A stretch of DNA of 64,000 nucleotides, taken from assembly GCF_056712565.1 (NCBI RefSeq), contig NZ_CM160072.1, one strand, 5' to 3'. Position 1 is the stretch's first letter, and each line of letters starts with the position of its first letter. Shown one piece after another: positions 4,415-53,749 of this stretch. Below the pieces are notes generated by a model. That model searched no databases. It had not been told where the DNA came from and saw only the letters and a program-made list of their open reading frames with translations. The position numbers and the translations under genes are program-made.

Positions 4415-5068
4415 TTAATCTGTCGCGTCTCGCCATTCGCCATTGGCAAGATTATCCAAAGAGTAATCCCCCATCGCATAGCGAATCAGTCGCAGCGTGG
4501 GGAAACCAACATGGGCGGTCATGCGGCGCACCTGGCGATTACGTCCCTCATATAAGGTGATCTTCAGCCAGCTGGTGGGAATACTTTTGCGCTCACGAAT
4601 TGGTGGATTCCGCGGCCATAACCACGCGGGTTCTTCAACCAGCTCCGCGCCTGCGGGCAGGGTAGGGCCATCATTTAAGGTTACGCCATTGCGCAAGGCT
4701 TCAAGTGCGTCTTGTGTGGGAATACCTTCCACCTGCACATAATAGATTTTTCCGGTGCGTTTACCCGGCTGGGTTAAACGCGCCTGCAACGCGCCGTTAT
4801 TGGTCAGCACCAGTAACCCTTCGCTGTCGCGGTCGAGACGACCTGCCGCATACACCCCCTGAACCGGGATGAATTCTTTTAATGTTTTGCGTCCGGCTTC
4901 ATCGGTGAACTGCGGAAGAACATCGTAGGGTTTATTGAACAGGATCACACGCGTGGGCTGGTTTTCAGGTTTACGCCTGGTAGAACGTTGCGAGCTGAAT
5001 CGCTTAACCTGGTGATTTCTAAAAGAAGTTTTTTGCATGGTATTTTCAGAGATTATGAATTGCCGCAT
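4415..5068 (-). CDS. rluE: 23S rRNA pseudouridine synthase RluE
   Basis: 217 aa ORF; RsuA/RluE family motifs ([17 protein letters not shown]); conserved position upstream of icd. Confidence 0.88.
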
Positions 5069-5239
5069 TATAGCCTAATAACGCGCATCTTTCATGACGG
5101 CAAACAATAGGGTAGTATTGACAAGCCAATTACAAATCATTAACAAAAAATTGCTCTAAAGCATCCGTATCGCAGGACGCAAACGCATATGCAACGTGGT
5201 GGTAGACGAGCAAACCAGTAGCGCTCGAAGGAGAGGTGA

Positions 5240-6490
5240 ATGGAAAGTAAAGTAGTTGTTCCGGCACAAGGCAAGAAGATCACCCTGCAAAACGGCAAAC
5301 TCAACGTTCCTGAAAATCCGATTATCCCTTACATTGAAGGTGATGGAATCGGTGTAGATGTAACCCCAGCCATGCTGAAAGTGGTCGACGCTGCAGTTGA
5401 GAAAGCCTATAAAGGCGAGCGTAAAATCTCCTGGATGGAAATTTACACCGGTGAAAAATCCACACAGGTTTATGGTCAGGACGTCTGGTTGCCTGCTGAA
5501 ACCCTTGATCTGATTCGTGAATATCGCGTTGCCATTAAAGGCCCGCTGACCACTCCGGTTGGTGGCGGTATTCGCTCTCTGAACGTTGCCCTGCGCCAGG
5601 AACTGGATCTCTACATCTGCCTGCGTCCGGTACGTTACTATCAGGGCACTCCAAGCCCGGTTAAACACCCTGAACTGACCGATATGGTTATCTTCCGTGA
5701 AAACTCGGAAGACATTTATGCGGGTATCGAATGGAAAGCAGACTCTGCCGACGCTGAGAAAGTGATTAAATTCCTGCGTGAAGAGATGGGCGTGAAGAAA
5801 ATTCGCTTCCCGGAACATTGCGGTATCGGTATTAAGCCGTGTTCGGAAGAAGGCACCAAACGTCTGGTTCGTGCAGCGATCGAATACGCAATTGCTAACG
5901 ATCGTGACTCTGTGACCCTGGTGCACAAAGGCAACATCATGAAGTTCACCGAAGGCGCGTTTAAAGACTGGGGCTACCAACTGGCGCGTGAAGAATTTGG
6001 CGGTGAACTGATCGACGGCGGCCCGTGGCTGAAAGTTAAAAACCCGAATACCGGCAAAGAGATCGTCATTAAAGACGTGATTGCTGATGCATTCCTGCAA
6101 CAGATCCTGCTGCGTCCGGCTGAATATGATGTTATCGCCTGTATGAACCTGAACGGTGACTACATTTCTGACGCCCTGGCAGCGCAGGTTGGTGGTATCG
6201 GTATCGCCCCTGGCGCAAACATCGGTGACGAATGCGCCCTGTTTGAAGCCACCCACGGTACTGCGCCGAAATATGCCGGACAGGACAAAGTAAACCCAGG
6301 CTCTATTATTCTCTCCGCTGAGATGATGCTGCGCCATATGGGTTGGACTGAAGCGGCTGACCTGATTGTTAAAGGTATGGAAGGCGCAATCAATGCCAAG
6401 ACCGTAACCTATGACTTCGAACGTCTGATGGAAGGCGCTAAACTGCTGAAATGTTCAGAGTTTGGTGACGCGATCATCAAGAATATGTAA
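5240..6490 (+). CDS. icd: Isocitrate dehydrogenase (NADP); 3' ~165 bp is the prophage-adjacent copy of the att duplication
   Basis: 416 aa [41 protein letters not shown]...; classic Icd. Confidence 0.95.
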
Positions 6491-6541
6491 TCACTACATG
6501 TGTTAAATATTGAAACGGGCGTATAACACGCCCGTTGTTTT
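6327..6541. repeat. Left copy of the icd 3'-end direct repeat (attL side of prophage)
   Basis: About 215 bp here are repeated with a few mismatches at 53750..53966, including the icd stop codon and terminator hairpin. Confidence 0.85.
6513..6541 (+). terminator. icd rho-independent terminator
   Basis: Hairpin AAACGGGCGTATAACACGCCCGTT followed by GTTTT, 22 bp after the icd stop. Confidence 0.75.
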
Positions 6542-6557
6542 ATGATGATGTAAAATC

Positions 6558-6593
6558 TTCCCCAAAACTTTCCCCAAAACCCTTCCCCAAAAC
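6558..6593. repeat. Three tandem TTCCCCAAAAC repeats, candidate integrase arm-type binding sites
   Basis: TTCCCCAAAAC occurs three times with ~12 bp period between icd terminator and int; one further copy at 53621..53631. Confidence 0.5.
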
Positions 6594-6603
6594 TGGCTAT
6601 TTT

Positions 6604-7746
6604 CTATGCTGTTTTGATATCTACGATAATCCAGTCTTTACCACGATCATCATTGTATCGGTCGGTCATTTTTCTGGATTTATGGCCTAACAACTTTTGC
6701 GTATCCAGACCCTGTTCCCGATATAACCGTTCTGACAGAGATCGCTGCTCATGAAATGTGGGCGCAGTTCCTTGCTCCCATTTTATGCCACATTTTTCCC
6801 GGGCCTTTTTAAAAGCCGTTGTCAGAGTATTCGCAGAAACCTGGTCTCCTCTGTTTGCTTGAGAGGTAGTGTGACGGTAATGGACCAGATATTTACTAAC
6901 AACAGCATCCCTGCACTGAGATATAACTTCACGAAGGGTAATATTCAGAGCATCGCATTTCAGGTTAAGCGGAATAGCAAGTTTTGAACCGGTTTTTTCC
7001 TGAGTAATGTGCAACATGTCGTCCCATATATCAGAGAATTTCAAATTGCAGATATCGCCTAAACGTTGTCCAGTAACAAGAGCAAGTAGCATGCCGCATT
7101 TTAAATAGGGCTGCCGTCTGCTTACGCTGTCAAATATTGCCTGCCATTCGGGCAGTGACAATCTTTGGCGGTTTACTCGATTTCGTGGTTGTTTTGTTGC
7201 CTGCGCTGGGTTAAATCCTGGCGGAACATGTCCTGCGTGTTGTGCTTCTTTGAAGACGTCGATCAACACCATTCTCACGACTTGCGCCATCCTGTTATGA
7301 CCTTCAGCCTTTACAGCATCAATTATTTCGGCAATATCAAGTGCGGTAATATCCTTGAGGTGTTGCATTCCACAATGCTCACGGAAAAGACGAATGGGTT
7401 TGCCTTTTTGCCGATAGGAGTTGGGTCTTAGTTCATTATGTTGCAGCCTGTCCTCTTGGATAGAAATATATTTATCAAGCCATTCTGTCACCGTAATGTC
7501 TGAGCGCCTGCCTTTCATTCTTTCCAGACGCTCATTGACGCTTAATATTTGTCTGGTACGTTGTTCAGCAATAATGGTATTTGCTTCAGTAGCAACTTGT
7601 TTTGCTTCATTCTCATCAGTTCCTAAGCTATGAAAACGACCGGATAGTGGATGTTTGTATTGCCAATATACCTTTCCGGTTCGCTTATCTAATTTGCAAT
7701 ATAAATTGGGTATAGAGATTTTGTGAGATCGGGGTCTAGCAGCCAT
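6604..7746 (-). CDS. int: Phage integrase (tyrosine recombinase)
   Basis: 380 aa ORF directly beside the att repeat; C-terminal R..HxxR..Y-type catalytic region (LGHKSRKMTDRY); lambda-like int-xis arrangement. Confidence 0.88.
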   Translation of the reverse strand: MAARPRSHKISIPNLYCKLDKRTGKVYWQYKHPLSGRFHSLGTDENEAKQVATEANTIIAEQRTRQILSVNERLERMKGRRSDITVTEWLDKYISIQEDRLQHNELRPNSYRQKGKPIRLFREHCGMQHLKDITALDIAEIIDAVKAEGHNRMAQVVRMVLIDVFKEAQHAGHVPPGFNPAQATKQPRNRVNRQRLSLPEWQAIFDSVSRRQPYLKCGMLLALVTGQRLGDICNLKFSDIWDDMLHITQEKTGSKLAIPLNLKCDALNITLREVISQCRDAVVSKYLVHYRHTTSQANRGDQVSANTLTTAFKKAREKCGIKWEQGTAPTFHEQRSLSERLYREQGLDTQKLLGHKSRKMTDRYNDDRGKDWIIVDIKTA

Positions 7747-24062: not shown

Positions 24063-24520
24063 ACAGAGTAACCGCGATTATCTCCGCTCTGGTTATCTGC
24101 ATCATCGTCTGCCTGTCATGGGCTGTTAATCATTACCGTGATAACGCCATTACCTACAAAGCCCAGCGCGACAAAAATGCCAGAGAACTGACGCTGGCGA
24201 ACGCGGTAATTACTGACATACAGATGCGTCAGCGTGATGTTGCTGCGCTCGATGCAAAATACACGAAGGAGTTAGCTGATGCGAAAGCTGAAAATGATGC
24301 TCTGCGTGATGATGTTGCCGCTGGTCGTCGTCGGTTGCACATCAAAGCAGTCTGTCAGTCAGTGCGTGAAGCCACCACCGCCTCCGGCGTGGATAATGCA
24401 GCCTCCCCCCGACTGGCAGACACCGCTGAACGGGATTATTTCACCCTCAGAGAGAGGCTGATCACTATGCAAAAACAACTGGAAGGAACCCAGAAGTATA
24501 TTAATGAGCAGTGCAGATAG
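24059..24520 (+). CDS. Rz: i-spanin Rz
   Basis: 153 aa from [19 protein letters not shown]... with N-terminal TM and coiled-coil region; overlaps endolysin stop. Confidence 0.85.
24279..24461 (+). CDS. Rz1: o-spanin Rz1 lipoprotein, embedded in Rz in the +1 frame
   Basis: 60 aa; lipobox LPLVVVGC and proline-rich stretch [15 protein letters not shown]. Confidence 0.85.
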
Positions 24521-45643: not shown

Positions 45644-47710
45644 GTGAATATGGCAGTACAGATTTCAGGCGTGCTGAAAGACGGTGCAGGAAAACCGATA
45701 CAGAACTGCACCATTCAGCTCAAAGCAAAACGTAACAGCACCACGGTTGTGGTGAACACGGTGGCCTCAGAAAATCCGGATGAAGCCGGACGTTACAGCA
45801 TGGATGTCGAGTATGGCCAGTACAGCGTTATCCTGCTGGTTGAAGGTTTTCCGCCTTCACATGCCGGGGCCATCACCGTGTATGAGGATTCTAAGCCGGG
45901 GACATTGAATGATTTTCTGGGCGCTGCAACAGAAGATGATGTTCGTCCGGAGGCACTGTATCGTTTTGAAAAGATGGTGGAAGAGGTGGCACGCAACGCT
46001 GAAGCCGCCTCTCAGAGCGCAGCGGCAGCAAAGAAATCAGAAACAGCAGCGGCATCGTCCAGGAATGCGGCGAAAACATCAGAGACGAATGCAGGTAACA
46101 GCGCGAAAGCGGCAGCTTCTTCAAAAACAGCCGCACAAAACGCAGCAACAGCGGCAGAACGTTCAGAGACAAATGCCCGTGCGTCAGAAGAAGCCTCCGC
46201 AGACAGTGAAGAGGCTTCCCGCCGTAATGCAGAGTCAGCCGCTGAAAATGCCGGAGTCGCCACCACAAAAGCGCGGGAGGCCGCAGCAGACGCAACAAAG
46301 GCCGGGCAGAAAAAGGATGAGGCTCTGTCGGCAGCGACACGGGCTGAAAAGGCGGCAGACCGCGCAGAAGTCGCAGCGGAAGTGACTGCAGAGCCCTATG
46401 CGAATATAGTGCCGCCGCTGCCTGATGTGTGGATACCGTTTAACGATTCACTGGATATGATTGCGGGTTTTTCTCCGGGCTATAAAAAAATAGCTATTGG
46501 TGACGATGTGGTTCAGGTCGCCAGTGATAAACAGGTTAATTTCAGTCGCGCATCAACGGCAACATATATCAACAAATCTGGCGAACTGAAAACGGCGGAA
46601 ATTAATGAGCCGCGATTTGAGTGTGATGGCCTGCTTATTGAGGGACAAAGAACGAACTACATGCTCAATTCGGAAAGTCCAGCCAGCTGGGGGAAGTCAT
46701 CAAACATGGATGTGCCCGAAACCGGGACAGATAGTTTTGGTTTTACTTATGGAAAGTTTGTCTGCAACGATTCTCTGGTTGGGCAAACTTCGGCTATTAA
46801 TATGGCATCAATTGCTGCAACAAAGTCAGTTGATGTCTCAGGCGATAACAAGTACGTGACAACCTCATGCCGTTTTAAAACAGAACGACAGGTAAGGTTA
46901 CGTATACGGTTTGATAAGTATGATGGTAGTGCAACAACTTTTCTTGGCGATGCGTACATTGATACGCAAACGCTTGAAATTAATATGACAGGTGGGGCTG
47001 CCGGCAGAATTACGGCACGAGTCAGGAAGGATAAGACCACAGGCTGGATTTTTGCAGAGGCAACGATTCAGGCAATTGATGGTGAGTTAAAAATAGGCTC
47101 TCAGATACAGTATTCTCCTGAGCGGGGTGGGGCAACAGTATCTGGTGACTATATTTATCTTGCCACCCCACAAGTAGAGAATGGGCCGTGTGTATCATCA
47201 TTTATTATTTCAGGAGGCAGCGCAACGACAAGAGCCAGTGATTTGGTTAGTATCCCCACCAGAAATAATCTTTATAAGTTACCATTTACTTTTTTACTTG
47301 AGATTCATAAAAACTGGGATATTGCACCAAACGCCGCACCCCGCGTGTGGGATATAGCAGCAGCCAATACCGGGCAATCAGCAATTGCAGCAATCAACAG
47401 AGGTAGTGGTAAGTTATATATGAGTCTGTCAAACCCTTCAGGCTTGTATGTTAATAGCGCAGCGACAGATGTATTTGCAGAGAAAACCACATTTGGATGT
47501 ATTGCAAAAGCTGATGGTCACTTTCATGTGGTGACAAATGGTAAAGCGGTTAATGAAGTTTATTGTGAATATAATGGTGTGACCGCTGATAAAAATATCC
47601 GATTTGGAGGGCAGACGAATACTGGAGAACGACATCTGTTTGGCCATATTCGCAATTTCCGCATATGGCATAAAGAATTAAATGACAGGCAATTAAAAGA
47701 GGTCGTATGA
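45644..47710 (+). CDS. stf: Side tail fibre protein, chimeric: lambda Stf-like N-terminus, Ala-rich linker, novel AT-rich C-terminal domain
   Basis: N-terminal ~110 aa (M)AVQISGVLKDGAGKPIQNCTIQLKAKRNSTTVVVNTVASENPDEAGRYSMDVEYGQYSVIL match lambda Stf; C-terminal ~400 aa unrelated to lambda. Confidence 0.85.
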   Translation: MNMAVQISGVLKDGAGKPIQNCTIQLKAKRNSTTVVVNTVASENPDEAGRYSMDVEYGQYSVILLVEGFPPSHAGAITVYEDSKPGTLNDFLGAATEDDVRPEALYRFEKMVEEVARNAEAASQSAAAAKKSETAAASSRNAAKTSETNAGNSAKAAASSKTAAQNAATAAERSETNARASEEASADSEEASRRNAESAAENAGVATTKAREAAADATKAGQKKDEALSAATRAEKAADRAEVAAEVTAEPYANIVPPLPDVWIPFNDSLDMIAGFSPGYKKIAIGDDVVQVASDKQVNFSRASTATYINKSGELKTAEINEPRFECDGLLIEGQRTNYMLNSESPASWGKSSNMDVPETGTDSFGFTYGKFVCNDSLVGQTSAINMASIAATKSVDVSGDNKYVTTSCRFKTERQVRLRIRFDKYDGSATTFLGDAYIDTQTLEINMTGGAAGRITARVRKDKTTGWIFAEATIQAIDGELKIGSQIQYSPERGGATVSGDYIYLATPQVENGPCVSSFIISGGSATTRASDLVSIPTRNNLYKLPFTFLLEIHKNWDIAPNAAPRVWDIAAANTGQSAIAAINRGSGKLYMSLSNPSGLYVNSAATDVFAEKTTFGCIAKADGHFHVVTNGKAVNEVYCEYNGVTADKNIRFGGQTNTGERHLFGHIRNFRIWHKELNDRQLKEVV

Positions 47711-47985
47711 AAGATTTAACTTTGAAGTTTCATGACAAACTGCAGTTTAAGGCCTTCCTGTCATCTCTTGACTGGGAGGAGGATGAAGACTTCCAGAATA
47801 AACTGTTAGTCGATGAAATTGGTTTCACCTACACAGAAACAGGGGTAACAGAAGAGGGAGAACCTGTCTGTGTCCGGAATGACGGTTATTTTGTCAACAT
47901 TCGCATTCTTGATGACTTGTTTGATGTTTCTGTATTCTCTGATTATGTCGTGGAGCTGGAAACACCGCTTCGGGAATGGAGCTGA
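47707..47985 (+). CDS. Hypothetical acidic protein following the tail fibre
   Basis: 92 aa; start overlaps stf stop; not recognisable as a Tfa-type fibre chaperone. Confidence 0.45.
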   Translation: MKDLTLKFHDKLQFKAFLSSLDWEEDEDFQNKLLVDEIGFTYTETGVTEEGEPVCVRNDGYFVNIRILDDLFDVSVFSDYVVELETPLREWS

Positions 47986-47997
47986 AAGGAGGAAATA

Positions 47998-48291
47998 ATG
48001 GATATAAGCCCCTTACTTCATGCGCTTTGTGCTGTGGCTGCGCAGATACTGGTTGGTCTTTTTACCGGAAACTGGGCTTACGGAGCGATAGCCGGTTGTA
48101 CGTTCTTCATTGCGCGTGAACATACCCAGGCAGAATATCGCTGGATTGAAATGTTCGGGCATGGCAAGCGAATGAATATGCCGTGGTGGGGCGGTTTTGA
48201 TCCGCGAGCTTGGGATGTGGCAAGCCTGATGGATTTTGCTGTGCCGGTGGTGGCGTGTCTGCTGGTCTGGCTGTTGGTTAATCGTGGGTGA
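47998..48291 (+). CDS. Hypothetical small membrane protein
   Basis: 97 aa with hydrophobic segments at both ends (LLHALCAVAAQILVGLF...AVPVVACLLVWLLV). Confidence 0.45.
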   Translation: MDISPLLHALCAVAAQILVGLFTGNWAYGAIAGCTFFIAREHTQAEYRWIEMFGHGKRMNMPWWGGFDPRAWDVASLMDFAVPVVACLLVWLLVNRG

Positions 48292-48382
48292 AAAAAGGTG
48301 AGCTGTATATGCAACGGAGGAAGAAACCCCGTTGCTGGAAGCCAGGAAAAAGTATCGGGTGTTGCTGTCCTCGGATGTTGTG

Positions 48383-49240
48383 CTAATTGGGTGATAACAG
48401 ATCCTGTGTATGGGAGTTTCCCTTTTTGCGTGCGTTGATGCTGGTAACGGCAAACGTCATGATGAACAAAACCGCGAATAAGACGACAATCGTCGGAGCT
48501 GGTGCGCTGTCGATAAAAAAGGACAACCAGACACCAGTCATTGACACTATTACCGATATGCCAGTCGCCAGTAGGAGCGCAATATGAAAGCGTTGTGTCA
48601 GGAGTACCGCAATGGCGCCAGGCGCAATGAGCAGAGAAATGGAGAGAATGATACCTACCGCTTTCAGCGTCGCCACAATGGTCAGAGAGACCATGCACAG
48701 CAGCCCATAATGCAGCCATCTCGTATGCAAACCGCTTACCTGCGCCTGTTGATAATCAAAGCTGAACAGCAAAAAATCCCGCCATTTTACGCTAATAACA
48801 AGTGTAACCAGCCCGGCAATAATCATCGTCTGGATTATATCGCCGATGGTTATCCCGAGCATGTCGCCGAAAAGAATATGGTCAAGATGTACGTCTGGTT
48901 TGACTGCAATATACAAGATCAGACCTGCGGCAAACATGCCAGAAAAAACAATCCCCATCACTGTATCTTGCTTGATTCGGCTGTTGTCTTTCAGGTATCC
49001 CGTCGCCACCGCGCAGAATACTCCGGCGACGAATGCCCCTGTAGCCAAAGGTAACCCCAGAATCCAGGCAAGCACGATTCCAGGAAAAACCGCATGACTC
49101 ATCGCGTCACCCATCAGTGCCCAACCTTTCAGGACCAGAAAGACCGACAGCAGCGCACAGGGTATGGAAACTACCAGTGAAATCAGCAGTGCGTGACTCA
49201 TAAAGGTGAACTGCAGTGGCTCCAGTAATAATGCCATCAT
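48383..49240 (-). CDS. sitD: Mn/Fe ABC transporter permease SitD
   Basis: 285 aa polytopic membrane protein of the ABC-3 permease family, last gene of a four-gene operon. Confidence 0.85.
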   Translation of the reverse strand: MMALLLEPLQFTFMSHALLISLVVSIPCALLSVFLVLKGWALMGDAMSHAVFPGIVLAWILGLPLATGAFVAGVFCAVATGYLKDNSRIKQDTVMGIVFSGMFAAGLILYIAVKPDVHLDHILFGDMLGITIGDIIQTMIIAGLVTLVISVKWRDFLLFSFDYQQAQVSGLHTRWLHYGLLCMVSLTIVATLKAVGIILSISLLIAPGAIAVLLTQRFHIALLLATGISVIVSMTGVWLSFFIDSAPAPTIVVLFAVLFIMTFAVTSINARKKGNSHTQDLLSPN

Positions 49241-50094
49241 GAGCGATCCTCCAGCGCCTTATGCGCACGCCGACGATTTGCCAAAAGCCCATGGGTGGGC
49301 GCAAAGACAAATGCTAAAAGAAACAGCAGTGTCTGCGCCACCACGATGATTCCACCTGTCGCGCCGTCCAGAAAGTAACTGACCCACGCGCCGAGGAAAC
49401 TAGTTACACTGCCAATAGTTACAGCAATCATGAGCAGGCGGGGAAAACGATCGGTTAACAACCATGCTGTTGCACCGGGAGTCACCACCAGACAGATCAC
49501 CAGAAAGGCACCAACCGTTTGCAGCGCCGCAACGGTCGAAACCGACAGCAGGGTGAAGAAGATGAGTTTTAATCTGCCCGGATGCAATCCAATAGCACGG
49601 GCGTGATTCTCGTCGAAAAAGGTCACCATAAGATCTTTCCATTTGAAAAAAAGCACGATGATCGAGAGAATGCCAATGATAGTGAGTTGCAGGATATCCG
49701 CCGGATCGATTGCCAGAATATTGCCCAGGACGATGGTCTGAATGTTCACAGATGTCGGGTTCAATGACACCATAAACAGCCCCAGGCCAAAAAAGGACGA
49801 GAAGATCAGACCGATGATGGCATCTTCTTTTAAGCGGGTGCGTTGGTTAAGAAACAGCATGCTGCCCGCAGCCAGTCCGCCGGAAAAGAAGGCTCCCAGA
49901 GAAAACGGAAGCCCCAGCATATATGCCCCCGCAACACCCGGGACAATAGAGTGCGACAACGCATCGCCAATCAGCGACCAGCCTTTTAGCATCAGATAGC
50001 ATGACAGGAAAGCGCAGAGACCGCCGACCATCGCCGAGACCCACATCGCATTGAGCATATATTCATAGCTGAAGGGTTCCAGTAGCACGTTCAT
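49237..50094 (-). CDS. sitC: Mn/Fe ABC transporter permease SitC
   Basis: 285 aa ABC-3 family permease, paralogous to SitD. Confidence 0.85.
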
Positions 50095-50918
50095 CTTTCT
50101 TCCCTCTGCACCGCTGACGGTCGATGAGCCACAAAAGGGCGTTCATCGTCAGTAATAATGCTTTCTTCCGAGCCGTTAAGTGTGACATGGCGCAGTACGC
50201 CGCTAAAAGCCAGCTCCAGGTTCTCGGCTGTAAAAGTGGTGTCTGTCGGCCCGCTTGCCAGGACGGTGCCTTTGACCATGACCGTATAATCGCAAAATGT
50301 CGTGACGGATCCGAGATTGTGTGTTGAGACAAGCATCGTTTTGCCTTCCGCGCGTAACTCCCTCAACAGGCTGATGATTTTGGCTTCGGTTTTCACATCA
50401 ACGCCGGTAAAAGGTTCATCCAGCAGGATCACATCACCCTGCTGTGCAATCGCTCTCGCCAGAAAGACGCGTTTCTTTTGTCCACCGGAAAGCTCGCCGA
50501 TTTGTCGATGGCGAAAATTCACCATATCGACACGTTCCAGCGCATCGGTGACAATCTGACGATCCCTCTTTTTGGCGATACGCAACATACCCATATGCCC
50601 ATAGCGGCCCATCATCACCACATCTTCCACCAGTACAGGAAATGACCAGTCAACATCTTCTGACTGAGGGACGTAGGCAACCAGGTTTTTCTGTAACGCC
50701 TGTCGCGTGGGAATACCCAGAACAGATATCTTTCCGCTGGTCAGACGCACAAATCCCATAATCGCTTTAAACAACGTCGATTTTCCGGAACCGTTTACCC
50801 CAACCAGAGCGGCAATAGATCCGCCTGGTACTGTGAAGGATGCATCGCGCAGTGCTGTGTGCCCGTTACGCCAGGTGACAGTAACATCATTAACGACAAT
50901 GCCTGCAGATTGCATCAT
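50091..50918 (-). CDS. sitB: Mn/Fe ABC transporter ATP-binding protein SitB
   Basis: 275 aa; Walker [13 protein letters not shown] signature LSGGQKKR, Walker B ILLDEP. Confidence 0.9.
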
Positions 50919-51832
50919 TATTTCTCCCTTTTCCCAGCTTTAATTCCCTGTACCAGCGTACTGGTAGTAACCTTAAGAAGGTCGATATACGTCGGTACCG
51001 GGCCGTTTTCTGTGCTCAGGGAATCGACATAGAGCACACCGCCGTAGTGTGCGCCGGTTTCACGCGCAACCTGACGCGCTGGTTTATCGGAAATCGTACT
51101 CTCGCTAAAGACTGCCGGGATATGATTTTTCTTAACTATATCAACAACCTTACGTACCTGCTGCGGTGTTCCTTGTTGATCGGCATTAATCGGCCACAGA
51201 TAAAGCTCTTTTAGCCCCAAATCGCGTGCGAGATAAGAAAAAGCCCCTTCACTGGTGACCATCCATCGCTGATTCTCAGGGAGTTCCGTAATCTGCTTAC
51301 GCAGGGGGGCAAGGGTTTGGGTAATCTTGGCTTTATAAGTATCGGCATTGCGTTGGTAGGTTTGTGCATTTGCCGGATCGTATTTTATCAACGCATCACG
51401 AATATTATCGACGTAAATCAGAGCATTATCTGGCGACATCCATGCATGGGGGTTAGGTTTGCCCTCATAGGGTCCTTCGGTGATCCCTACAGGCGTCACA
51501 CCCGAAGAGACAATTACTTCTGGAACCCCATTGAGATGCTGGTAAAAGCGTTGGAACCACAATTCCAGATTCATACCATTGGCGAGAATCAGTTGTGCCC
51601 CCTGCGCACGTTTAATATCGCCAGGGGTAGGCTGATACTCATGAATTTCTGCACCAGGCTTGGTTATGGATGAGACTTCTGCAGCATCTCCCGCCACGTT
51701 TTTGGCCATATCCGCGATGATGGTAAATGTTGTAATGACCTTGAATTTTTCAGTTGCACTTGCCTGAAATGCGATCGAGCAGGTGAGTGCGAGGCCCCCC
51801 AAGAGCATGGTTACTTTTTTTATCGAGTGCAT
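50918..51832 (-). CDS. sitA: Periplasmic Mn/Fe-binding protein SitA
   Basis: 304 aa with signal peptide; cluster 9 (TroA/ZnuA-like) solute-binding protein. Confidence 0.88.
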
Positions 51833-51864
51833 AATTTAGTACCTATAGTGAGCAAAATTAGAAC

Positions 51865-51886
51865 AAACATAGCAACGGCTATGTTT
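51865..51886. promoter_or_regulatory. MntR operator: perfect inverted repeat AAACATAGC-n4-GCTATGTTT
   Basis: Palindrome about 35 bp upstream of the sitA start. Confidence 0.75.
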
Positions 51887-51908
51887 TATAGCACAACCTA
51901 TACAAAAT

Positions 51909-51927
51909 GAAAATGATTATCATTAGC
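51909..51927. promoter_or_regulatory. Fur box
   Basis: GAAAATGATTATCATTAGC matches 16 of 19 positions of GATAATGATAATCATTATC, in the sitA promoter region. Confidence 0.7.
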
Positions 51928-52239
51928 GGTTTTGAGGCCCAAAACAGGGATTAGGTTGTTTCCGGCTGGCGACGCGTTATTGAGGAAAAAAGTAAGGCAG
52001 CTAGTAGGCTTTGAAATAACGTTTTGCGGTTGGCTGATGCAATTTCGAGAGTGCATGTATTGAATGATTTCTAGCCGTTACTGATTTTCGTATTTTTTGT
52101 ATGGGAGGATTTGCACCTCTCCCCACCGAGCCTCCATGACTTTACTCCACTGTCTCTAGGGCTGCTGTGTGCCAGGAGCGGAAGCAGGGGGGCCAGAGAC
52201 TCCTTAAAAGTTGATAGCTCGTTTTGCAGGGAGACTTAC

Positions 52240-52330
52240 ACGGTAAGCGTTATTCCGAAGAGCTTAAAATTGAAGCAGTCAAACGGGTTGTTGAGCGTGT
52301 TTATGCGCTGCCATCTGATTAATCGACGGA
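52240..52330 (+). mobile_element. Short remnant of an IS3-family transposase orfA N-terminus
   Basis: Frame translating HGKRYSEELKIEAVKRVVER resembles the SGKRYPEEFKIEAVKQVVDRG motif of IS150/IS3-group OrfA; only ~25 codons then a stop. Confidence 0.4.
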
Positions 52331-52518
52331 AGCAGTTCCGTTTGGTCTATGATGCAGTTGTCCGGCAGGCGCTCTGTGACGCAAAAGAACGATAGGAGTA
52401 GCATTGAAGTGAACGAGGTTATGCTTGTCTTATATTATCCTCTATTTTAAAAACATCAGCTGGTTGTGTAAGAGTTTTTATTGTTTTATCTTGTTGACTT
52501 TGCTTTTATGAAAACAGA

Positions 52519-53289
52519 GTGATTGATACAATGAAAACCTTAAGTGGGAAAGAGTTTAGGAAATTATTTAATCGTTATGAGACAGGATTCTATCTAAGTG
52601 AGTTTGAATACTTAAAGGACTTTGATCCTTTGTTTCCTGAATGCGTAGGGAAAGAATTAAAGTTGGGTTATAAACGAAAAGTTGATGTATGGTGCGAAGA
52701 GGATGCTGCGCTATATGCAGAATTTATAGCTACAAAAGAAAGGCTGAAAAGAGGCCGGTTAATCCTAAAAATAAACCAAGTGTGGTCGCGTGTATATCCT
52801 GCTTATATTTATGCAATTGAAGAAAGAATAAATGTCAGGGCAAAGGGGAGAGAGTCATTTAAGTATGAAACTGTGCAAGAAAAACAATGTAAACTTTCCA
52901 TAATGTTAGATGGTCTGAAAGACCTTGAATGTGAAATAGCTATGATTTCAAGTGAGTTTGAAATTGAAAAACACTCTATGCACTATTTTTATATGATTTT
53001 TGATATTGAACGCTATATAAATGACTGCAGTTACTTTGTTTTTTCTGCTGCTAAAGTTGTTAAAGGCGTGATTCAATGCATTGGTTACATTGACAAAAAT
53101 AACAAAGCAAGTTGCGATGAATTTTATTCAGGCAGCTATGAATGCTTGGATGATGATCAGGAAACACTGAACTATTTAAATGAATCATGCGCAGAGGGTA
53201 TAGACGCTGATAAAGATCTCATCAGGAAGAATGAGTTATTAGCCTTATCCCTGAAGGAATTGTATCAACTTCTCGTTTCAAAAAAATAA
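52519..53289 (+). CDS. Hypothetical protein (256 aa), AT-rich orphan cargo gene
   Basis: Long ORF in ~33% GC DNA between sit operon and attR; no recognisable domain; start could be Met1 or Met5. Confidence 0.6.
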   Translation: MIDTMKTLSGKEFRKLFNRYETGFYLSEFEYLKDFDPLFPECVGKELKLGYKRKVDVWCEEDAALYAEFIATKERLKRGRLILKINQVWSRVYPAYIYAIEERINVRAKGRESFKYETVQEKQCKLSIMLDGLKDLECEIAMISSEFEIEKHSMHYFYMIFDIERYINDCSYFVFSAAKVVKGVIQCIGYIDKNNKASCDEFYSGSYECLDDDQETLNYLNESCAEGIDADKDLIRKNELLALSLKELYQLLVSKK

Positions 53290-53749
53290 CAAGTAATACG
53301 GCGAGCGATATGACGTGCCATGGGATATCCGCACCCAGCAGCATGTTGTCTCCACGATGTCCGCAGTTCGCTCATAATAGACATTCACTACAGTTATAGT
53401 AGAAGGTATGCATGCTGCTGAGTGGGGAAAGTGTGAAAGAAAAGAAGACAGCTGCTTTGTTTGTCGTCACGTTTATCTTCATTGGCTATGCAAGTCGTAA
53501 TACAAGGCGGGACAAAACTGAGACACATAAGGCCTCGCAATGGCTTGCAAGGCCACACATGTATTGAGATGTTAATAAAATGTAGACTTGTAATTTTGAT
53601 ATAAATGGTAGAGAAAATCTTTCCCCAAAATAAAAACGAACGTCAATGAAATCAAACGGTTGAATAAAGTTGATTTTGGCTAATACAAAGACAAGAAAAT
53701 AATATTTATGATTAAATATCAGCGAGTTGAATACATAATTTTTATATAC

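Follow-up and report, generated by a model that had tools for sequence, protein, structure and literature searches.

An IS3-family orfA fragment near the sitABCD genes of a phage-21-like prophage is probably a passenger of a separate cargo cassette

A phage-21-like prophage and its sit cassette

The window, by which we mean the whole 64-kb stretch of DNA that was analyzed, holds essentially the whole of a phage-21-like prophage at icd, since the int-proximal DNA of a related phage matches its positions 6327-6727. According to the annotation of CFT073 and phage 21, the prophage runs from tail-fibre genes through two small ORFs, the minus-strand genes sitDCBA, approximately 690 bp without a convincing gene, and a gene for a 256-amino-acid protein, to a duplicate of the icd 3' end that marks attR. 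The part of this region that concerns us (51850-52520) is ExPEC-type E. coli DNA, 100% identical to that of CFT073, Nissle 1917, UTI89, and many others. Isolated lambdoid phages also carry it, including phage 21 (98.5%) and ev017 (100%).

The sit genes occupy a foreign block with well-defined limits. Phage lambda matches the window at 48310-48367 (the 3' end of tfa) and again at 52018-52182, and the block between these matches is common to the ColV plasmid p1ColV5155 (L010). As lambda homology stops at 48367 and resumes at 52018, and as the ColV plasmid shares 48356-52017, we place the sit cassette at 48356-52017 on the minus strand. It is 96.7% identical to the plasmid copy over 3667 nt, a copy that serves as a comparator rather than as a proven donor; the flanks of the true donor could differ. 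Within the cassette lie the sitDCBA ORFs (48383-51832, minus strand; gene names follow the CFT073 and phage 21 annotation) and the sit promoter region (51833-52017). The window sitA (50918-51832) is intact and encodes 304 amino acids, whereas that of CFT073 (L001 5047-5983) is marked as frameshifted by RefSeq. Either the window belongs to a near relation of CFT073 and not to that strain, or the reference sequence may be in error.

Phage backbone resumes directly beyond the sit promoter region. The segment at 52018-52182 is homologous to the lambdoid b region, namely to lambda 24184-24348, between ea47 and ea31. It is 79.5% identical to lambda imm434 and 85% identical to an e14-like prophage (L005), with partial matches in HK97 and Stx phages. 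Its last 14-23 nt or so overlap the start of an 81-nt block that is described below. The sit cassette thus qualifies as a lambdoid phage moron: a foreign block amid backbone genes, with abrupt junctions to lambda-like DNA.

Both sit junctions carry short stretches of shared sequence. At the left junction (48356-48367), GGRTGTTGCTG is common to lambda tfa and the ColV plasmid, and at the right junction (52013-52020), AACGT is common to lambda and the same plasmid. An IS end is absent from both. These joins look most likely to be products of microhomology-mediated illegitimate recombination, a mechanism that we infer from the bases shared at the junctions.

Identity and anatomy of the IS3-family fragment

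Beyond the right sit junction lies a short piece of an insertion sequence (IS). The original prediction drew attention to a peptide here that resembles IS150/IS3-group OrfA, and it described the reading frame correctly: the 32-codon ORF at 52224-52322 on the plus strand translates as MQGDLHGKRYSEELKIEAVKRVVERVYALPSD and stops early, at a TAA at 52320-52322. This ORF is mechanical, opening on a TTG, and is not a gene. The homologous segment within it, 52241-52313 (plus strand), corresponds to nt 69-142 (codons 3-26) of an element whose OrfA depositors have named ISEc14 or ISEhe3. As the intact comparator, we used a 1230-bp copy on a plasmid (NZ_CP157326.2 162586-163815; locus L004). The fragment and the comparator are identical at 65 of 74 positions (88%), with one gap, by blastn, and pairwise E-values against the intact IS3-family element were 9e-19 and 8e-20.

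Searches of larger collections return the same family. With 52100-52420 as the query, a search of 28 Gb of E. coli genomes matches these 73 bases, at 85-88% identity (E ~1e-14), to genes annotated as "transposase" or "IS3 family transposase", and thousands of plasmids likewise carry transposase matches to 52241-52313. The intact element's OrfA, searched by tblastn against the whole window, shares 17 of 27 residues with its hit (E = 8e-7). The peptide residues GKRYSEELKIEAVKRVVE align with positions 5-22 of the 75-position Pfam profile HTH_Tnp_1 (E = 0.005), with a score below the gathering threshold, as would be expected for a match of 18 residues; beyond them, the remainder of the helix-turn-helix is undetectable, both with Pfam and in a similarity test against the IS orfA. 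The brevity of the fragment and its low Pfam score might suggest that the resemblance to OrfA is fortuitous. Nevertheless, 88% nucleotide identity over 74 positions to bona fide IS copies, at E-values of 1e-14 in 28 Gb and 8e-20 pairwise, rules out a chance match for practical purposes, and we give that reading a negligible probability.

The fragment has lost both ends of the element. The original prediction placed it at the N-terminus of OrfA. This holds for codons 3-26, but homology begins only at codon 3 and the start codon is missing: the window reads TTA CAC where the IS reads ATG AGC, and the bases at 52236-52240 are part of the separate 81-nt block rather than of the IS. Near codon 26, one nucleotide of the IS is missing between 52306 and 52307, and the resulting frameshift leads into the premature stop. 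Neither nt 1-68 of the IS nor its right end finds a match, and the left inverted repeat (IRL) is absent from the fragment. As had been predicted, IS-like inverted repeats are lacking; none occurs in 47500-53600, so that neither the fragment nor sit is flanked by them. A second piece of an ISEc14/ISEhe3-like element was not found elsewhere in the 64-kb window. OrfB, which in IS3-family elements is the transposase with the DDE (rve) catalytic domain, is not represented: that of the intact relative finds nothing by tblastn in 52000-52600, nor anything above chance window-wide. The part of the IS that would contain the programmed -1 frameshift site, an A-run, is missing from the window.

Two proposals for a longer transposase remnant were rejected. 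The GenBank record of phage 21 mentions, in another reading frame (52270-52395), a similarity to the OrfB "M domain" of IS3, which the record itself calls "unconvincing"; it is unsupported by Pfam, NCBIfam, or tblastn. A decayed orfA of approximately 60 codons (52241-52421), obtained by conceptual correction of the frameshift, did not lengthen the Pfam match. We conclude that 52241-52313 is a non-functional internal piece of an ISEc14/ISEhe3-like IS3-family orfA: an inert, old, and ordinary relic.

A cargo cassette and its 81-nt junction block

The fragment sits within a stretch of approximately 1.2 kb (about 52160-53364) that comprises the 81-nt block, the IS fragment, a spacer, and the gene for the 256-amino-acid protein. 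We refer to this stretch as the cargo cassette. Its gene (52519-53289, plus strand) is the cargo with which the IS fragment travels. The protein has no Pfam or NCBIfam family match and falls in phrog_20520 (E 1e-177), a PHROG of unknown function. Homologues with 63-88% identity occur in Citrobacter, Klebsiella, Mangrovibacter, and metagenomic contigs, some of them beside conjugation-type genes. The conjugation-type neighbours include TraG/TrwB-like, RAQPRD, DUF3262, and topoisomerase III genes. Conserved at 63-92% identity across phage, chromosomal islands, and conjugation-type loci, the gene looks like mobile cargo under purifying selection.

The DNA directly upstream of this gene (52422-52518, plus strand) is kept in all relatives and aligns in Citrobacter, Klebsiella, and Mangrovibacter. 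It includes a CII-binding site predicted by the annotators of phage 21 (52481-52494), which is also conserved in non-lambdoid contexts. This putative site may be just part of the gene's own promoter.

The spacer (52314-52421) separates the IS fragment from this conserved region. Its first part, 52314-52409, resembles neither IS orfA considered here more than expected by chance (z about 0) and yields no Pfam extension. The alignment with Mangrovibacter plantisponsor (L023) begins at 52410; of the spacer, the last 12 nt or so (up to about 24 as judged by eye) are homologous to the terminus of another orfA fragment of the IS3 family in that genome (...GGMELNEV). This suggests that 52398-52421 might also derive from an IS3-family orfA, a suggestion that does not extend to 52314-52397. 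In Mangrovibacter (4650-4900), this other IS3-family left end abuts the DNA upstream of the homologue of the 256-amino-acid gene, and the junction coincides with that of the window. An IRL-like terminus (TGACCTGTCCCC...) is present, together with an OrfA that starts MKKRFSVEQ..., contains a single frameshift, and breaks off near codon 56, at ...GGMELNEV; this OrfA fragment matches HTH_Tnp_1 with an E-value of 6e-11. IS3-family debris upstream of the gene is therefore known in two distinct forms, that of the window and that of Mangrovibacter.

At its right end, the cassette stops at ATGTCCGCAGTTCGCTCA (53357-53374): from here on, the window is again homologous to the e14-like prophage and no longer to the Citrobacter and Klebsiella cassettes. 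The boundary motif ATGTCCGCWnnTCGCTCA is common to the Citrobacter, Klebsiella, and e14-like loci (L005, L021, L022, L030, and L031). The GTCCGC core of this motif has a counterpart at the left boundary, in the GTCYGCT ahead of the 81-nt block. The repeated core could be a recombination core or a coincidence.

At the left end, the IS fragment is directly abutted by the 81-nt block, a conserved non-coding sequence that we call A2 (52160-52240). It has a sharp 3' end, reading ...GGGAGACTTACA in the window and ...GGGATACTTACA in the consensus. The full consensus is GTCYGCTnTGTGCCAGRAGCGGAAGTTGGAGTGCCAGAGACTCYCTAAAAGTTGATGGTTCGTTTTGCAGGGATACTTACA, with a mean column identity of 77% across the 17 copies aligned. 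The block is present in many plasmids, phages, and chromosomal islands of Enterobacterales; copies with 76-86% identity were found in 17 or more contexts, and the DNA past ...TTACA is unrelated in all of them. Its hosts are plasmids of Klebsiella, Mixta, and Citrobacter and chromosomes of Citrobacter, Yersinia, Erwinia, and Tatumella (besides the window, loci L007, L008, L021, L024-L026, L030, L041, L057, L071, L095, L112-L114, L116, and L131). The query 52018-52240 is matched by 365 plasmid records. A degenerate pattern scan of genome contigs gave 100 matches, of which about nine Enterobacterales loci were real and most others were chance matches in unrelated phyla. Lambda and the e14-like prophage share just the first 14-23 nt or so of the block. 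Single genes found beside it encode an HNH endonuclease, a DUF6602 protein, a caspase-like protein, and the 256-amino-acid protein.

Several candidate roles for the block were rejected. It is not the missing left end of the IS, as it shows no similarity to the left end of either the ISEc14-like or the Mangrovibacter IS. It has no Rfam match, fold z-scores near 0, and a covariation term of 0, against a structured RNA or a single-strand promoter hairpin. A scan of 51800-52600 for sigma-70 promoters and terminators gave nothing beyond chance, and the genes downstream do not have a consistent orientation.

Might the block itself be the end of a mobile or recombining unit, one that terminates in ...TTACA and became fused with, or entered, an ISEc14-like orfA at nt 68/69, so that the IS fragment is target DNA rather than what is left of an IS insertion at this site? 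The ends of DDE transposons often finish in CA, with short direct repeats. In the 17-copy alignment, the block can be seen to end in CA and to contain two GTGCCAGA-like direct repeats approximately 22 nt apart. Such a unit would also fit the constancy of the terminal nucleotide across 17 contexts or more, each continuing into unrelated DNA, and the start of the IS fragment immediately after the block in the window. Yet no transposase or other common gene accompanies the block, and the block is unlike IS3-family left ends. A second or inverted copy of the block core occurs neither at the other cassette end nor elsewhere in the window. Furthermore, the window and two Citrobacter-type loci (L021 and L030) share the block together with its right flank, while the left flank varies; an element situated on the left would give the reverse pattern. 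We therefore regard this origin as unlikely.

A somewhat broader proposal, still doubtful, is that the block works as a DNA site of some undescribed type, such as a recombination or junction site that serves the exchange of single-gene cargo cassettes among phages, plasmids, and integrative elements of Enterobacterales. If this were true, the IS fragment would merely record what one cassette was once joined to. The block may be only a recurrent junction sequence in modular exchange. We found no published mention of its sequence in the literature searched.

A 200-amino-acid tyrosine recombinase that consists of the catalytic domain only is encoded immediately upstream of the block in K. variicola (L022 4235-4837). 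The same type of recombinase occurs in Citrobacter telavivensis (L021 385-987), 3.6 kb upstream of the block and with three cargo genes in between.

Descent of the fragment and acquisition of sit

Within E. coli, the fragment and sit are inseparable. The cassette is monomorphic in this species: it is present in 761 of 5426 complete E. coli genomes, and identity is 99% or more in 761 of the 762 records that match. Every context that we read for the exact 256-amino-acid protein is this type of sit prophage, and in the phage collection the protein occurs only in 20 sit phages of the same type. In all E. coli genomes and phages examined, the fragment is linked to sit, approximately 0.4 kb from where sitA begins (in the window, 409 bp ahead of the start codon).

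Citrobacter carries the cassette without sit. An unbroken alignment at 89% identity joins 52154-53364 to a Citrobacter telavivensis chromosome (L021), and a second contig (L030), whose homologue of the 256-amino-acid protein (P0005) is named by NCBI as Citrobacter werkmanii, aligns with 52169-53364 at 88.5%. No sit genes occur in the flank examined at either locus (~4-5 kb); the neighbours in C. telavivensis are recombinase, DUF1963, T5orf172, and SDR genes. The fragment has identical breakpoints in all three loci. Each copy starts at IS nt 69, ends near nt 142, and has the same 1-nt deletion. The copies also carry substitutions of their own, and that of L030 is nearer to the intact IS than that of the window (local-alignment score of 59 versus 55; about 67 of 74 positions identical by count). 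As the upstream DNA of the Citrobacter homologues shares the fragment in loci that lack sit, these alignments indicate that the fragment is linked by descent to the cassette of the 256-amino-acid gene, not to sit. Transfer between phage and Citrobacter could have run in either direction, and the cassette could in principle have left a sit-carrying phage.

The fragment appears to be decaying as its surroundings are. Across the cassette, the Citrobacter copies are 85-89% identical to the window: 85% in the fragment, 83-90% in the flanking non-coding DNA, and 90-92% in the 256-amino-acid gene. Decay at the rate of the adjoining non-coding DNA is the pattern expected of neutral DNA that hitch-hikes with a selected gene. 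The fragment has been kept across approximately 15% divergence in several hosts, and it is flanked by the junction block on one side and by the conserved DNA ahead of the 256-amino-acid gene on the other, so that retention for a function, whether as a small helix-turn-helix peptide or as regulatory sequence for that gene, might be considered. However, its divergence equals that of the neighbouring non-coding DNA, there is no ATG or ribosome-binding site, and an extra T breaks the frame of the 52224-52322 ORF in C. telavivensis. Moreover, one locus (L028) lacks 52210-52282, and with it the first 42 nt of the fragment, and K. variicola (L022) and C. sedlakii (L031) lack 52197-52419, and with it the whole fragment, yet all three keep the 256-amino-acid gene, intact. 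Retention for function is thus highly improbable.

According to the original prediction, the fragment is likely a scar left when sit came into the prophage. Such a scar could stem from an IS3-family-mediated event that delivered sitABCD, for instance through a composite transposon or IS-driven recombination. Some observations invite this interpretation. The fragment lies close to the sitA start and is always sit-linked in E. coli, and on ColV plasmids an IS1A bounds the shared sit DNA approximately 110 bp past the same, sitA-upstream, end. In addition, according to PMC7545054, which refers to Fisher et al. (2009), IS-associated rearrangements abound in sit islands.

Nonetheless, the scar interpretation is largely refuted and has little remaining probability. 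The fragment is not at the edge of the sit cargo, as had been thought, but begins 223 bp beyond the right sit junction, and the intervening DNA is lambda-like and other non-sit sequence. The sit junctions themselves display microhomology in place of IS ends. A composite transposon would be represented here by a single internal fragment outside the sit boundary, with nothing comparable at the left boundary. The cassette occurs in Citrobacter without sit and with the same IS breakpoints inside it. Finally, phages of the Lambda_4C10 type have the same sit insertion without the fragment: they share 47570-51969 with the window at 99.25% identity and lack 51970-53468.

In Lambda_4C10 itself (L006), which represents a second type of icd phage with sit, a different 498-bp segment (5121-5618), which contains a gene fragment with a HEPN-like RNKLAH motif, replaces 51970-53468. 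The sit cassette of this phage ends 48 bp earlier than that of the window, at the equivalent of 51969.

The best explanation, to which we assign a probability of approximately 80%, is that the fragment is a passenger of the 1.2-kb cassette and that sit was acquired separately. In our reconstruction of the order of events, the IS would have been truncated once only, before the copies of the cassette in E. coli phages and in Citrobacter diverged by approximately 15%, and the fragment would afterwards have decayed at the pace of the surrounding non-coding DNA. The 73-base orfA piece, now functionless, rides inside the cassette in the b region of the phage-21-like icd prophage. The sitABCD genes would have entered the backbone as a 3.66-kb block, via illegitimate recombination at short microhomologies, and would have replaced the ea47-equivalent part of the b region. 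The IS fragment has no visible part in this entry. What the alignments show directly is the identity and breakpoints of the fragment, the limits of the cassette, its inheritance together with the 256-amino-acid gene, and the sequences at the sit junctions; the succession of events and the mode of recombination are deduced from these. This explanation leaves the origin of the sharp left breakpoint, where the block gives way to IS nt 69, unaccounted for.

On its own, the IS3 fragment matters little, as a dead piece of a common insertion sequence. What it draws attention to is of wider use. The limits of the sitABCD moron in a widespread phage-21-like icd prophage can be fixed at 48356-52017, with junctions that are typical of illegitimate recombination and not of transposition. 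The DNA between sit and attR probably represents a second, independent cargo cassette that is common to other Enterobacterales. This corrects a tempting but apparently wrong account of how the virulence-associated sit transporter, which acts on iron and manganese, became phage-borne. It is also a warning that nearby IS debris should not be taken as the vehicle of a neighbouring gene.

The arrangement at this locus agrees with what is known of phage-borne sit genes. According to Mathieu et al. (2020, PMC6969025), lambda-type coliphages of the intestine often carry sitABCD as a moron, and a Fur box is found upstream of the genes. The arrangement here is the same: sitABCD takes the place of lambda ea47, bounded by the tail-fibre genes and att, joins the backbone DNA abruptly, and has a promoter region of its own that is presumably of the Fur-regulated type. 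The IS fragment is unmentioned in the published account.

The fragment differs from intact and remnant relatives in how little of the IS is left. An intact ISEc14/ISEhe3-like element has terminal repeats (TGAATCGCCACGG...), a 92-amino-acid OrfA, and an OrfB; PGAP annotates the two frames as a single "IS3 family transposase, programmed frameshift", and the A-run of the frameshift site (AAAAAAA) is at L004 2733-2741. In the intact element, nt 69-142 encode OrfA residues 3-26, GKRYPEEFKIEAVKQVVDRGYSVA, the counterpart of the window fragment, whereas the window keeps just 73 internal bases with a frameshifting deletion. A parallel is found in CP4-6, a prophage of E. coli K-12, where an N-terminal piece of an element of this type survives beside yagB and is annotated as a transposase pseudogene. 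Both remnants are dead, both lie within a prophage, and both were apparently left by later rearrangement. However, the CP4-6 remnant retains the left terminal repeat, the ATG, and approximately 250 nt of orfA before it is ended by IS30/IS1 debris, while the fragment studied here has lost both ends.
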